Shown here: piece after piece, positions 41,294 to 49,251 of the stretch
Position numbering within the stretch: the first letter of the stretch is position 1
How the letters are laid out: each line of letters starts with the position of its first letter
Assembly (NCBI GenBank): GCA_964414055.1
Contig: CAYPVD010000001.1
Coordinates: 1-60,776 of the forward strand
DNA length: 60,776 nucleotides
Origin: an uncultured Fibrobacteraceae bacterium
GTDB taxonomy: Bacteria; Krumholzibacteriota; Krumholzibacteriia; LZORAL124-64-63
Reading direction: 5' to 3'
Made by a program: the position numbers and the translations under genes
Notes under the pieces: generated by a model
What the model was told of the DNA's origin: nothing
The model's input: only the letters and a program-made list of their open reading frames with translations
Databases searched by the model: none

Positions 41294-42126
41294 CAGGAAA
41301 CATCCTCTTCAGCCAGGGAAATGTCGGACAACCTGCCGCATACGACATCCGGCCAGTCGTCCTGATCCATCCTGCCCAGGATTTCGTGGTCGCCGTGCTT
41401 GCCCGACAGGACGAATACCGTCTCCATGCCGAGGCGACCGGCGGTGATCAGATCGGAAACCGGATCATCGGAGATAAATAGAGTATCCTCGGCCGCCACG
41501 CCAATTCTTTTCAGGGCCGCACGGTAGATCCGCGGATCCGGCTTGCCGACGGTCAGGGTCCGCCCGACCCCGCCGAGGGCCTGCAGAGCCGCCGACCAGC
41601 AGCCCGGGCCCATGCGGCGGCAGTCCCTGTCGTCCAGGTAGAAGAGGTTGCGGTGCAGGCAGACGAGATCCACGCCCCGGTCCAGGACGGCAGGCAGCAC
41701 GCCCTCCAGATCCCCGGTCGTCAGATCGGGGTTGACGCCCAGGACCACGGCCTCGCACTCGTCTCCGCCGGTCAGTTCGAAGCCCGCCTCTTCCCAGTAG
41801 TTGTTCAGGCCCGCCACGCCCAGCCAGCAGATCCTCCTCAGGCCCCGTTCGGCCAGCATGGTACGTCCCAGTTCCAGCGCCCCGACCATCTGCTCGGTGC
41901 CCAGGGAAAAACCCGCGGCGTTGAGCCGCTCGATGAGCACAGTGGGGCGGTCGGTGGTGTTGTTGGAGACCAGGCAGAAAGGGATGCCCCGTTCCTGGAG
42001 CTCCGCGACCCACGCCACCGAACCCGGGACGGGCTCGTAGGCCTTGTTCCGCACCAGGACACCTTCGATGTCCAGCAGATACCCCTTGGCAAGACGCGGT
42101 TTTCTCACGCGAGACCTCCTGGTCAT
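41293..42126 (-). CDS. HAD-superfamily hydrolase, subfamily IIA (NagD-like)
   Basis: Motif I reads LLDIEGVLV (DxE where DxD is expected). Other blocks are LVSNNT, GKP and ISDDPVSDL. It overlaps both neighbours by 1 nt and 4 nt. Confidence 0.8.
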   Translation of the reverse strand: MTRRSRVRKPRLAKGYLLDIEGVLVRNKAYEPVPGSVAWVAELQERGIPFCLVSNNTTDRPTVLIERLNAAGFSLGTEQMVGALELGRTMLAERGLRRICWLGVAGLNNYWEEAGFELTGGDECEAVVLGVNPDLTTGDLEGVLPAVLDRGVDLVCLHRNLFYLDDRDCRRMGPGCWSAALQALGGVGRTLTVGKPDPRIYRAALKRIGVAAEDTLFISDDPVSDLITAGRLGMETVFVLSGKHGDHEILGRMDQDDWPDVVCGRLSDISLAEEDVS

Positions 42127-43328
42127 TCTCGGCCCCGTTCGATTCCGCCGACGGCGGCCACTTCCGCCAGCAGGTTATCATAATCGTCGATGATCCGGGA
42201 CCAGCAAAACTCATCCATGTCCTGCTGCAGGGAACAGACATGACCGCAGTCATCGCCGGTCAACAGGGTTCGCAACAGATCCTTCAGTTCCCGGTCCGTA
42301 CGGTAGAAATGCCTTCCCCGGCAACGGGTTCCATACAGGGAAGGATAGACCTGACGCCGGGGCAGGACCGGGTAGCACCCCGCGTGAACGGCCTCGGCCA
42401 CCGAGATTCCGAAGTACTCCTGATCGGCGCAGGACACCACGATATCAGCCTGCTCGAGTTGCTCCTCGTACCGGCTCCGATCCGGCACATGACCCCAGGC
42501 CACGCAGCTTTCCCCCAGCCTGTCCCGCAGGGTTTCGAACACCCCCTCGTTCCCCGCCGCGTCGCCCAGCAGAGCCGCCTCGAACTCAAGGCCCTCGTCC
42601 AGCAGTTCCAGCAGGACGGCCGCGAACTTCTCCGGGTGCTTGTCGAACTCCCAGCGGTGGTTCCACAGCAGCCGGTGGCGGCGCCCCCGGGGCCACCGGG
42701 GTCCCGCCTCCGGGGCGCAGGCGCCGCCGCGGTAGGCGGGAAAGCAGTCGTGACCGTGGGGGGACCTGCTCAGTCCCACCGGCAACACCCGGCTGCGCTC
42801 GGTGATCCGCTCCGGCACCCGGCGGGGGACGGCTTCGGGCATCTTGTTCAGGAACCCCGGTATGGCCGCCAGGAAAACGTCGCGGTGGTAGTGCGAGTTG
42901 AACACCACCTTGTCCGCAGCCAGGGCGCTGATGATGTTGGTGAAACCGAAATGGAAGTCGAACTGCTCCCGCGGACTCAGGGGATATGTCAGCTGGTTCT
43001 CGTGCATGTACAACACCAGGGGCACACGGTCCAGGGGGGGTGCCAGCAAGCCCCGCAGATCGGCCGCGTTGAGAAAGCCGGTGACGAGCAGCAGATCGAC
43101 CGCGGCATGGTCCCCGGCGTTGATCTTGTCGGCGAACCAGGCGGCCGCTCCGCGCATGCGCCATTTCCAGAACCTCCCCGGCAGGGTCATGCTGCTGATC
43201 CGGTGCCGGGACCATTCGGCCAACCCCTGACGGAAAGCACGATGGGAACCGTCGTCAAATGGTTCCAGGAAAAGGATATTCAGGCTCACGGCAGGCACGG
43301 AACGGTTTTTCCCTTTCTTCCCCAACAA
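42123..43328 (-). CDS. DUF3524 + GT1-domain glycosyltransferase, GTDC1/QTMAN (tRNA-queuosine alpha-mannosyltransferase)-like
   Basis: Conserved blocks are NILFLEPFDDGSH, LYMHENQLTYP, DKVVFNSHYH, LLWNHRWEFDKHPEKF and EYFGISVAEAVHAGCYPVLP. The start is either TTG at 43328 or GTG at 43289; the latter aligns with the family N-terminus. Confidence 0.8.
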   Translation of the reverse strand: MLGKKGKNRSVPAVSLNILFLEPFDDGSHRAFRQGLAEWSRHRISSMTLPGRFWKWRMRGAAAWFADKINAGDHAAVDLLLVTGFLNAADLRGLLAPPLDRVPLVLYMHENQLTYPLSPREQFDFHFGFTNIISALAADKVVFNSHYHRDVFLAAIPGFLNKMPEAVPRRVPERITERSRVLPVGLSRSPHGHDCFPAYRGGACAPEAGPRWPRGRRHRLLWNHRWEFDKHPEKFAAVLLELLDEGLEFEAALLGDAAGNEGVFETLRDRLGESCVAWGHVPDRSRYEEQLEQADIVVSCADQEYFGISVAEAVHAGCYPVLPRRQVYPSLYGTRCRGRHFYRTDRELKDLLRTLLTGDDCGHVCSLQQDMDEFCWSRIIDDYDNLLAEVAAVGGIERGRE

Positions 43329-43515
43329 CGGTTTCGGAGCCTGAATAATTGAACGATGGGACGAGATCCTGTATAATAATACCGATTGACAGCTCGACTT
43401 CCAGATTCGCCCGAAAGCCCTCGCCGCTTTCCAGATCCACGACCGGATTCAGGGCCTGACAACCTTCGCTGCCCCGGGCAGAGGCTGTAGCCGCTTCCGT
43501 AAGGAAAAGAGTACC

Positions 43516-47162: not shown

Positions 47163-48157
47163 CCAAGGACCACGGGCACCGTCCTGCCGCAACCGGGGCA
47201 GATGGGCCTTCCCTGCAATCTGGAATCCGCCCGCATGCCCACCCGCTCGATCAGGACCGTGCCGCAATCGGGACAGACGGTGTCGCGGCCCTTGCCGACC
47301 GCGGCATTGCCGAGATACACCCACGGCAGACGACGAACGGCGAGGTCCAGGGCCCGCAGGAGGGTCTGCGGCGGCGTGGGCGGGGCATCCATGCGCCAGG
47401 CCGGGAAATAGGCGCTGAAATGCAGGGGAATCTCGGAATCCAGGTCGGCCACGAAATCCACCAGGGCGATGATCCCCTCGTCATCGTCGTTGTAGCCGGG
47501 AATCAACAGGTTGGTCAGTTCCAGGTGGACCCCCGCGGCGTGGAATTGGCGGATCGCCGCCAGCACCGGCTCCAGACGGGCCTTGCAGATCCGGCGGTAG
47601 AAGCGGTCATCCATAGCCTTGAGATCGATGTTGGCGGCATCGATCAACGGCAACAGCTCGGCCAGTGGTTCCGGATTAAGGAAGCCGTTGGTCACCAGGA
47701 CGTTTTTCAGTCCCTTCCGGTGGGCCAGGCGGGCCGTATCGCGCACGAACTCGAACCACACCAGCGGTTCGCTGTAGGTGTAGGCGATCCCCACGCTGCC
47801 GGCCCGCAGGGCCGCGTCCACCAGGGCCTCGGGGGAAGTATCGCTGGCGGGGGTCTCGCGCCCCTGGCTGATGGACCAGTTCTGACAGAACAGGCAATGG
47901 AGATTGCAGCCGACCGCCGCCACCGAAAGGATGTCCCGCCCGGGATGGAAATGGTACAGGGGCTTCTTCTCGAGGGGATCGACGGCCACCGACACGATCT
48001 GTCCGTAGGACAGCAGGACCATGGTCCCATCGTGGTTGGCGCGGGATCCGCAGGGCCCGTCCCGGCCCGGCCTCAGGCGGCACCCGATGGGGCACAGATC
48101 GCAGGCCACCTGCCCGTTGGGCAAGGAATGCCAGTAGGCGGCGGGAACGGTCATCAT
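47159..48157 (-). CDS. AmmeMemoRadiSam-system-type radical SAM enzyme (PFL-activase-like)
   Basis: Blocks are the N-terminal [13 protein letters not shown], then [14 protein letters not shown], the [14 protein letters not shown] cluster, and a C-terminal CPDCG...CPGCG ribbon. The ATG overlaps the queG stop. Confidence 0.8.
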
Positions 48158-49251
48158 TTCCCCTCCTGTGATCCCTGCGCGGTCCTGAAGGCCAGCACCC
48201 GGGCAGCGTTGCGTCGCATGCCCTCGGGGTGACAGCGCCACAACGGGGTGTGCCGGAAGAGCCGACGAAACTCCCGCGCATCGATAGCGGCCAGGTCCGC
48301 CAGGCCGACCTGGTCATGCTCGGACAGGGTATCATATTCAGCGACCACCGGGGGCAGATCACGGCCGGCTGCCCGGTTGTTCCAGGGGCAGACAGCCTGG
48401 CAGATGTCGCAGCCGAACAGGATACCTCCTGTCTCCTTGACGCGATCGACCGGCACCTCGCCCCGCTGCTCGATGGTCCAGTTGGAGATGCAGGCGCCGG
48501 CGTCCAGGCCGCCGTCCGGGCCCAGGGCGCCGGTGGGGCAGGCGTCGATGCACCGTGTGCAACGGCCGCAGGCGCTCAGATAGGCGGTCTCCACCTGCCG
48601 GCGATGCCGGGGAACCACACCATAAAGAGGCTCGGCACGAGGTCTGCCGCCGGGGCCGAAGACCGCGGCATCTTCGAGTTCCAGGTTGGTCAGGGCCACG
48701 CCCAGGAACAGGCCCGAGCCCAGCTTCTCGTGGATCAGGCAGGTGTTCTTGCCCAGGAATCCCAGCCCCGCCAGCCAGGCGTATTCCCGTTCCAGGTAGG
48801 GGCCGGTGTCACAGCTGGCATGGGCCACAAGATCCGGCCAGCTGCTGCGCAAATCCCGCAGCACCCCCTTGATGGCCTTCAGCAGGATGTCGTGATAGTC
48901 CCGACCGCGCGCATAGCGGGCCACACCTGCGGTCCAGGGGGACTGAAGATCCCCCCTGCCGGTGGCCGAGGGATCCGTGTCATGGAGAGGCCAGCCCCGG
49001 GTGTAGCCCTGGGCGAACACCAGCAGGGTCCCGTTACCCCCCTGGTTCAAGCCCGGTTGAAGCCGTGTTTCCGGATCCCGGAGCATGTATTCCAGGCCGC
49101 CGTGGCGGCCGTCGGCCAACCAGCTGCGGAACTTCCCGGCCAGGGGCAGCCTGCAGGGCAGAGGCACGGCACCGGCCAGATCGATTCCTTCGGCAGGACA
49201 CAGCTCCCGGAGCCGAGCCTTCAGCTCATCCACGGTAACCATGATGCCCAT
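48154..49251 (-). CDS. queG: Epoxyqueuosine reductase
   Basis: The 4Fe-4S motifs are CGRCTRCIDACPTGAL and CDICQAVCPWN, with a HEAT-like C-terminus. ATG at 49251 lies 7 nt after AAGGAG. Confidence 0.9.
   Translation of the reverse strand: MGIMVTVDELKARLRELCPAEGIDLAGAVPLPCRLPLAGKFRSWLADGRHGGLEYMLRDPETRLQPGLNQGGNGTLLVFAQGYTRGWPLHDTDPSATGRGDLQSPWTAGVARYARGRDYHDILLKAIKGVLRDLRSSWPDLVAHASCDTGPYLEREYAWLAGLGFLGKNTCLIHEKLGSGLFLGVALTNLELEDAAVFGPGGRPRAEPLYGVVPRHRRQVETAYLSACGRCTRCIDACPTGALGPDGGLDAGACISNWTIEQRGEVPVDRVKETGGILFGCDICQAVCPWNNRAAGRDLPPVVAEYDTLSEHDQVGLADLAAIDAREFRRLFRHTPLWRCHPEGMRRNAARVLAFRTAQGSQEGK

Follow-up and report, generated by a model that had tools for sequence, protein, structure and literature searches.

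Mannosyl- and galactosyl-queuosine (manQ and galQ) are animal tRNA modifications made by the enzymes QTMAN (GTDC1) and QTGAL (B3GNTL1), which were identified in 2023 (PMC11755703, PMC12518689, PMC11705514). In manQ, the cyclopentene ring of queuosine (Q) bears an alpha-mannose at its allylic 3-OH; galQ is the beta-linked product of a separate enzyme, QTGAL, at a different hydroxyl (PMC12518689). The [M+H]+ mass by which both are followed is 572.22 (PMC11705514), compared with a calculated 410.17 for Q. Both are regarded as animal-specific decorations of a bacterial-derived micronutrient. The searchable literature, whose coverage does not extend to the original 2023 Cell paper, contains no mention of DUF3524, PF12038 or a bacterial QTMAN homologue. 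Here we describe a glycosyltransferase of the QTMAN/GTDC1 family (GT in the following) that is encoded at positions 42123-43328 of a bacterial contig of 60,776 nucleotides (CAYPVD010000001.1, assembly GCA_964414055.1), the whole of which we call the window. The genomes matching the window best are metagenome-assembled genomes (MAGs) of Krumholzibacteriota. An earlier note on this DNA had raised the possibility of glycosylated queuosine in a bacterium, arguing from the likeness of GT to the animal enzyme and from the nearby queF and queG genes; the homology part of this argument stands, and the neighbourhood part does not. We give a probability of roughly 0.5 to the reading, drawn from homology, that GT adds a hexose to Q34 of tRNA and would be the bacterial counterpart of QTMAN.

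The GT gene lies on the minus strand, which the earlier note had not stated, and its longest open reading frame (ORF) encodes 401 amino acids. The five sequence blocks cited previously are all present in its translation. The ORF had been assigned to the DUF3524 plus GT1 family, and it indeed encodes a full-length member of the QTMAN/GTDC1 family, although only one of the two Pfam models proposed for a check recognizes it. PF12038 (QTMAN_N, formerly DUF3524) matches residues 17-186 over profile positions 1-168 of 168 (E 9.9e-61, 204.9 bits, cutoff 25), while the C-terminal half gives a weak GT1 match of 22.2 bits, below the cutoff of 26.4. No NCBIfam model matches the protein. The motifs characterizing it are GSH (residues 27-29), PxRFWKWRxR (50-59), YMHENQLTYP (107-116) and FNS (143-145), followed by WNHRWEFDKxP (222-232) and an EX7E motif formed by E304 and E312. 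Translation probably starts at GTG 43286 or GTG 43295 rather than at TTG 43328, since in homologues only 4-5 residues precede the ILF(L/I)EP strand and since a purine-rich stretch resembling a Shine-Dalgarno sequence sits 5' of these codons. At the level of sequence, membership of GT in the QTMAN family is settled; its functional identity with animal QTMAN is what we infer.

A database search with GT returned 2,957 relatives, the best 120 of which are 61-100% identical to it; the named entries among these 120 are called 'DUF3524 domain-containing protein' and stem from Krumholzibacteria or Gemmatimonadota MAGs. Among the representatives of a 50%-identity library, 886 belong to the family at E <1e-30, and at least 526 genomes proved to carry a GT relative when GTDB was scanned with a single genome for each species. 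At least one cultured organism, Desulfonema magnum (strain 4be13), carries a family gene; its protein is 41% identical, and the gene lies at about 4,662,267-4,663,346 of NZ_CP061800.1 (L056). The family is mostly unsampled by the genome scan, with 140 of 149 of the 50%-identity representatives falling in clades outside its sample. Bacterial members are already known to the databases, as can be seen from Pfam's renaming of its entry and from the label 'DUF3524 domain-containing protein' at NCBI. The phage and plasmid collections that we searched hold no GT homologue. Within the phylum, GT proteins are 60-80% identical, which is comparable to QueF (67-83%), while the identity of QueG is lower (40-62%).

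For the comparison with the animal enzyme, a human GTDC1 sequence served only as the probe with which the animal-type representative P0179 was picked. A search with P0179 then yielded the animal set, i.e. entries that NCBI or UniRef name as QTMAN, and our conclusions rest on these. The matches are named 'tRNA-queuosine alpha-mannosyltransferase' or 'glycosyltransferase-like domain-containing protein 1' and come from echinoderms, lancelets, fish, amphibians, reptiles and mammals. The reciprocal comparison with GTDC1 that the earlier note had suggested gave an end-to-end alignment with named animal QTMANs and a profile match at 100%. In BLASTP, GT aligns to aardvark QTMAN with 34% identity in each half (E 3e-32 and 3e-29) and to QTMAN of Chanos chanos over the full length (E 7e-55). 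An hhalign comparison of 25 Krumholzibacteriota sequences with 16 animal QTMAN sequences resulted in 100% probability (E 1.3e-66) over 372 columns, and this match takes in the whole C-domain of GT. A joint alignment of 20 bacterial and 16 animal sequences has 46 invariant columns spread over both domains, including G27-S-H29, P50/W54/W56/R59, Y107-HENQ-x2-YP116 and F143-N-S145 as well as W222-x-HRWE-x-DK-x-P232 and E304-x7-E312. Twenty columns remain invariant when 43 sequences spanning the whole family are considered. In a neighbor-joining tree the animal QTMANs form one clade among deep bacterial clades, and there is no separate bacterial subfamily apart from the animals. The mean identity is 32.6% between animals and Krumholzibacteriota, 36% between animals and other bacteria and 40.6% between Krumholzibacteriota and other bacteria, the animal-bacterial values coming near the one between bacterial phyla.

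Taken by its sequence, GT is an uncharacterised bacterial member of a known family and a genuine relative of the animal queuosine-mannosylating enzyme. Both proteins have the same two-domain architecture, are collinear from end to end, and share GSH, WxWRxR, HENQLxYP, FNS, WxHRWExDKxP and EX7E; the predicted structure of GT is a retaining GT-B fold, and the window encodes QueF and QueG, two predicted enzymes on the way to the would-be acceptor Q. In contrast, the identity between them is only about 33% (29-34% in BLASTP), the animal proteins hold an insert of about 100 residues as a low-complexity interdomain linker that GT does not have, GT carries a 4-residue insert and a Cys/His cluster specific to Krumholzibacteriota, and the GT gene shares its operon with genes for a HAD phosphatase and a hydrolase. 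Moreover, glycosyl-Q has been reported from animals only.

The 4-residue insert and the conserved Cys/His cluster of the Krumholzibacteriota GTs lie within residues 333-375. In this clade C336, H340, H363 and C365 never vary and C361 and C375 hardly do, while animal QTMANs have neither Cys nor His at these positions. The cluster may be a structural metal site. The confidence of the structural model described below drops here to a pLDDT of 63-71.

The limited identity to the animal enzyme brings up the alternative that the bacterial proteins belong to the same family and act on some different conserved molecule of the cytoplasm, which may be RNA or another modified nucleoside but also a protein or metabolite, and that animal QTMAN gained its specificity for Q-tRNA after divergence. 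The 29-34% identity speaks for it, as does the diversity of the family, which is mostly bacterial (the 140 of 149 representatives outside the sampled clades), so that the ancestral function need not equal the animal one. However, the N-domain motifs GSH, WxWRxR, HENQxxYP and FNS do not change between Krumholzibacteriota and mammals or within the 43 family-wide sequences, and such invariance of acceptor-side motifs argues for a common acceptor chemistry. The tree without a split into animal and bacterial subfamilies likewise counts against a different acceptor, and no conserved neighbour hints at one. We therefore regard a change of acceptor as rather unlikely.

The AlphaFold2 (AF2) model of GT has a pLDDT of 82.9 and a pTM of 0.84. 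Its best Foldseek matches in the PDB are the retaining GT-B enzymes GlgM (6tvp), SenB (8rz3/8jjn), MshA (3c48), BshA (6n1x) and PimA (2gej), with E values of 2e-12 to 1e-8, TM scores of 0.5-0.6 and identities of at most 16%; glycogen synthase and sucrose-phosphate synthase are also among the structural neighbours. A sequence-level PDB search with GT gave no match. According to the model, GT has a retaining GT-B (GT4-like) fold with the EX7E motif in its C-domain, and such a fold together with EX7E fits the formation of an alpha-mannoside from GDP-alpha-mannose. The GT4/GT5 enzymes just named share with GT the two Rossmann domains of the GT-B fold and a C-terminal motif of the EX7E type, but their N-domains are devoid of the QTMAN_N motifs and they act on small molecules, lipids or glucans. 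GT contains no hydrophobic segment (the maximum Kyte-Doolittle mean over 19 residues is 1.31), which indicates a soluble, cytoplasmic protein.

Two further enzymes that decorate Q34 are instructive. QTGAL belongs to the same product class, i.e. glycosylated Q34, but is an enzyme of the GT-A fold class. Nothing in the window functionally resembles QTGAL, though no search was aimed at it; the sole GT2 gene of the window (52351-53121) adjoins a PMT_2 membrane protein. The bacterial enzyme GluQRS (YadB/GluQ) glutamylates Q34 of tRNA-Asp in the E. coli system. It acts at the same pathway step that we propose for GT, as it decorates the cyclopentenediol of finished Q34, it occurs sporadically in bacteria and its gene is typically found apart from the que genes. 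In contrast to GT, GluQRS has the fold of a truncated paralogue of class I aminoacyl-tRNA synthetases and forms an aminoacyl ester instead of a glycoside.

If GT acts as QTMAN does, Tgt, QueA and QueG would first build queuosine at position 34 of the tRNAs with a GUN anticodon. The family-specific N-terminal domain of GT would then bind the Q34 anticodon loop, while the C-terminal Rossmann domain with E304 and E312 of the EX7E motif would bind an NDP-hexose, by analogy GDP-mannose. The sugar would be moved with retention of configuration to a hydroxyl of the cyclopentenediol, giving hexosyl-queuosine. As far as gene content can tell, the presence of queF suggests that the organism makes queuosine precursors, and that of queG that it makes mature Q34. 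Both are encoded 3.5-6 kb from GT, and the surroundings of the gene are as follows.

40379-40395, minus strand: terminator-like hairpin with a T-run just 3' of the hydrolase stop (consensus match only)
40406-41293, minus strand: alpha/beta-fold hydrolase resembling small carboxylesterases and monoacylglycerol lipases
41293-42126, minus strand: HAD-IIA phosphatase of the NagD/p-nitrophenyl-phosphatase type (TIGR01460)
42123-43328, minus strand: GT, QTMAN/GTDC1-family glycosyltransferase (PF12038 and GT-B C-domain)
43329-43515: divergent intergenic region of 187 bp between the GT operon (minus) and the S8 gene (plus)
43516-46710, plus strand: S8 subtilase with a C-terminal sorting domain of the type IX secretion system (T9SS), divergent from GT
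46791-47162, plus strand: queF, unimodular preQ1 synthase (TIGR03139, E 1.4e-54)
47159-48157, minus strand: radical SAM gene of the AmmeMemoRadiSam type (TIGR04337, 327 bits)
48154-49269, minus strand: queG, epoxyqueuosine reductase (TIGR00276, QueG_DUF1730, Fer4_16)

The gene calls of the earlier note largely agree with this list. GT does head an overlapping three-gene operon, its stop codon TGA (42125-42123) overlapping the ATG of the HAD gene as ATGA and the HAD stop overlapping the ATG of the hydrolase gene as TGATG; the hairpin at 40395-40379 likely marks the predicted end of this operon. The S8 protease gene stands on the other strand between the GT group and the que group as described, and TIGR03139 corroborates queF at 46791-47162. 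The identity of queG is upheld by TIGR00276, QueG_DUF1730 and Fer4_16 (the TIGR00276 score of 195.9 bits lies slightly below the 200-bit cutoff); its ORF extends over 48154-49269, and ATG 49251 may be the start. The absence of tgt, queA and queC/D/E from the window was reproduced by tblastn with the E. coli proteins, which found no match in the 60 kb. Rfam and tRNA scans of the window detected no preQ1 riboswitch, no tRNA gene and no Rfam match.

The conservation of this neighbourhood was followed in the genome scan, from which 80 loci with flanks of +-10 kb were kept. The gene order of the window is shared by 48 of these 80 loci, with GT identities of 54-80%. Among the Krumholzibacteriota, an alpha/beta hydrolase lies 3' of GT in all 43 loci with enough downstream flank, the divergent S8 protease is present in 41/43 and HAD in 35/43, being missing between GT and the hydrolase gene in the other 8/43; the syntenic block also holds two hypothetical genes. 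On the upstream side, queF and then the radical SAM gene and queG follow beyond S8, and of the 26 loci whose upstream flank is complete, 24 have queF within 10 kb of GT. In 13 loci queF lies at 3.3-3.65 kb, which is exactly one S8 gene away from GT. The que genes are retained no more faithfully than the unrelated S8 or hypothetical genes. The phylum-wide conservation of the block is one evolutionary event and not 24. Since the block is conserved as a whole in one phylum, queF and queG are syntenic bystanders and give no evidence of function. In one basal locus (L046) no S8 gene lies in between, and queF is the immediate divergent neighbour of GT.

The co-translated partners of GT raise another explanation, namely a pathway for a small-molecule glycoside in which GT would make a glycosyl-phospho-acceptor, the HAD-IIA phosphatase would dephosphorylate it and the hydrolase would trim the product, by analogy with sucrose-phosphate synthase and its phosphatase (SPS/SPP), MshA with its phosphatase, and the synthase/phosphatase pairs for compatible solutes. 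The coupling of the three genes through the ATGA and TGATG overlaps and their retention in the phylum (HAD in 35/43, hydrolase in 43/43 loci) are in line with it, and MshA, BshA, GlgM and sucrose-phosphate synthase are structural neighbours of GT. However, this Foldseek likeness (identity of at most 16%) is common to all GT4-like enzymes, and the N-domain of GT is of the QTMAN type, unlike that of any known glycoside-phosphate synthase. The HAD protein is generic, with Pho2-type p-nitrophenyl phosphatases (pNPPases), YutF and NagD as its best PDB relatives, and as a NagD/pNPPase-type enzyme it has no sugar-phosphate signature. Furthermore, 8/43 loci of the phylum keep GT without HAD, and tblastn with the HAD and hydrolase proteins of the window found neither in the 112 loci from other lineages described below. 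The consistent pairing of GT and phosphatase that two-step glycoside-phosphate systems need was thus not found across the 43 and 112 loci, and we consider such a pathway improbable. HAD and hydrolase point to no specific pathway. That they act in the same circuit as a queuosine-modifying GT, e.g. by clearing a competing glutamyl-Q ester, is pure speculation.

Outside the phylum, the genome scan contributed 32 loci of about 40% identity from Desulfobacterales (including Desulfonema magnum), Spirochaetia and Myxococcota, and a family-wide profile contributed 80 metagenomic loci of 40-58% identity to a central family member. Queries were Tgt, QueA, QueC, QueD, QueE and QueF of E. coli as well as QueF and QueG of the window. 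Flanks of 5 kb or more are available for 74 loci, which represent 42 distinct contexts and 1.05 Mb, and all 112 loci amount to 1.14 Mb. On the assumption that a genome of 4 Mb has about 5 que loci and that about 15 kb are covered at each GT locus, we estimate a chance linkage of about 2% per context; one que-linked context was observed in 43 against about 0.8 expected by chance. The co-localisation of bacterial DUF3524 genes with que/tgt genes, for which the earlier note had proposed a survey, is hence confined to one phylum (0/112 elsewhere) and stands at chance level, and we reject que/tgt proximity as functional evidence, given synteny in a single phylum and 112 loci without linkage. The genes for tRNA modification are usually scattered, and because of this the missing clustering with que/tgt is no refutation of the function either.

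A search for other partners by ORF clustering and Pfam annotation of the neighbours revealed no universal partner of GT, only lineage-specific neighbours. The Pfam families of the two genes on either side of GT gave no recurrent partner in the 32 other-lineage genome loci, where the commonest family among 121 nearest neighbours, the response regulator, occurs 6 times. Several lineages nevertheless place GT next to genes for RNA metabolism or translation. In a marine lineage of low GC content (30-42%), smpB and tyrS adjoin GT in 16 and 15 loci, respectively (e.g. L129:6857-7306 and L115:6983-8188; L101-L146 subset), the GTs of these loci being 54-89% identical. Both genes are mostly divergent from GT, and in L138 and L141 they lie downstream on the same strand, from which it follows that the adjacency survived an inversion. 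In 3/4 Spirochaetia loci (L049, L051, L080) an RsmB/F RNA m5C methyltransferase is encoded 0-41 bp 3' of GT on the same strand, and in the fourth (L078) it is found 5 kb from GT; these methyltransferases (NOL1/NOP2/Sun) have about 260 amino acids and are only about 50% identical to each other. A mutase of the PGM/PMM family is encoded upstream of GT on the other strand in 4 Spirochaetia loci. The neighbours in Desulfobacterales are a TPR protein, YidD and a PilB-like ATPase. The RNA and translation neighbours are compatible with a tRNA-modifying enzyme, to which they lend weak support; none of these associations is tighter than the Spirochaetia operon.

The gene pair gatC-gatA, which belongs to the Asp-tRNA(Asn)/Glu-tRNA(Gln) amidotransferase, occurs 1-6 kb from GT in three otherwise unrelated loci at differing positions (L053, L056, L157; TIGR00132 matches in L157 with 623 bits). 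We rejected it as a partner because the recurrence is non-significant, about 3 universal single-copy families being expected to recur three times by chance.

In Desulfonema magnum (NZ_CP061800.1; L056:7130-10000) a UDP-glucose/GDP-mannose dehydrogenase gene, which contains an intein bearing a LAGLIDADG domain, ends 4 nt before GT, and a 4HBT thioesterase gene overlaps the 3' end of GT. It is the only locus with a sugar-nucleotide partner of that kind.

This dehydrogenase directly upstream of GT is also one of the features that would suit a common glycosyltransferase of the cell envelope, working on polysaccharide, glycolipid or cell wall. The automatic JGI name 'glycosyltransferase involved in cell wall biosynthesis', the weak GT1/GT4 matches of the C-terminal half and a second GT4 gene adjoining GT in 2/112 loci go in the same direction (GT1 proteins are 2/121 of the nearest neighbours in the 32 genome loci). 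Yet GT has no membrane segment, neither the window nor the annotated neighbours show a flippase, a polymerase or a multi-GT cluster around the gene, its sequence is very well conserved between phyla by the standards of envelope glycosyltransferases, and the family is shared with animals, where its member acts on tRNA. An envelope function is contradicted by solubility, context and conservation, and we see hardly any room for it. The variable stand-alone housekeeping contexts of the 112 loci outside the phylum, devoid of polysaccharide clusters, weakly favour a tRNA-modifying enzyme instead. More telling than the individual neighbours is that GT is single, chromosomal, located outside glycan clusters and highly conserved.

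Our estimate of about 0.5 for hexosylation of Q34 thus rests on the invariance of the acceptor-side motifs, the lack of a split between bacterial and animal sequences, the cytoplasmic stand-alone character of the gene and the presence of Q-pathway genes; with the neighbourhood being uninformative, homology carries the whole case. A number of points weigh against it. Inside the phylum the que genes lie beyond an unrelated divergent S8 gene and the gap between GT and queF varies from 159 bp to 8.3 kb, and none of the 112 loci outside Krumholzibacteriota has tgt or queA/C/D/E/F/G, QueH and salvage genes not having been among the queries. The recurrences of translation neighbours are by our estimate not significant given the number of families examined: translation accounts for about 5% of genes, and a survey of thousands of gene families should bring up some recurrences of this kind by chance alone. 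It is not obvious what HAD and the esterase-like hydrolase would do in tRNA glycosylation, and a small-molecule pathway would suit them better. An identity of about 33% to animal QTMAN is a level at which acceptor specificity can change, GT is not basic (pI 6.5), and the searchable literature provides neither biochemical nor nucleoside evidence for any bacterial family member. The pI of 6.5 and the 42 independent contexts without que/tgt linkage count at the same time for a different acceptor.

Extended to the family, the hexosylation reading would mean that several bacterial phyla put a sugar on their own tRNA Q34 via QTMAN orthologues, among them Krumholzibacteriota, Desulfobacterota, Spirochaetota, Myxococcota, marine low-GC lineages and many unsampled clades, a generalization that we put forward tentatively and with slightly less conviction than the proposal for GT itself. 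If it is true, a known tRNA hypermodification would reach a second domain of life, and glycosyl-queuosine would be no animal invention, the animal enzyme being one branch of an old, mainly bacterial family. It would also clarify the origin of the animal enzyme and offer tractable bacterial systems for studying the role of the wobble-base sugar in decoding and tRNA stability. If the acceptor differs, a large conserved 'DUF' glycosyltransferase family would gain its first bacterial function. The window itself adds little beyond homology, while the hypothesis at the level of the family would surprise specialists in tRNA modification. Sugar-decorated queuosine in bacteria is, as we see it, an attractive homology-based hypothesis that the neighbourhood does not support.

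Further observations concern the genes around the GT operon. The intergenic region 43329-43515 contains one sigma-70-like match at 43349-43377 on the plus strand. S8 and queF are co-directional and 80 bp apart, and queF may be transcribed from the promoter region diverging from the GT operon. The S8 subtilase contains beta-helix-type repeats (a weak DUF5123 match). In 11 marine metagenomic loci, a T9SS-tailed Exo_endo_phos protein is encoded convergently to GT, and the sharing of a T9SS-tailed neighbour is probably coincidental lineage synteny. The radical SAM gene, absent from the earlier note, sits between queF and queG. Its ATG (48157-48155) overlaps the queG stop TGA (48156-48154) as ATGA, with GGAGGG 5 nt upstream, so that queG and the radical SAM gene form a translationally coupled pair, and this pair recurs in 24 loci of Krumholzibacteriota. 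Partner genes for AMMECR1 or Memo are absent from the annotated genes of the window. In one distant lineage (L088:6390-9352; GT 37% identical) a like radical SAM gene is located about 770 bp 3' of GT on the same strand.

The remaining window is ordinary chromosome with pyrB/C/D, hemC, dus, glgC/glgA, a ClC channel, an M16 peptidase and cdaA. A 734-amino-acid protein encoded at 37510-39714 on the minus strand, which has no Pfam or NCBIfam match, is kept 3' of the operon in 33 related loci and ends in three copies of (K/R)VYDL(A/S)E(L/F)GA. Two large membrane proteins encoded on the minus strand resemble protein mannosyltransferases of the eukaryote type: one of 919 amino acids (30145-32904) matches Dpy19, a C-mannosyltransferase family, with E 6.5e-12, and the other of 544 amino acids (50580-52214) gives PMT_2/PMT matches and adjoins the GT2 gene.

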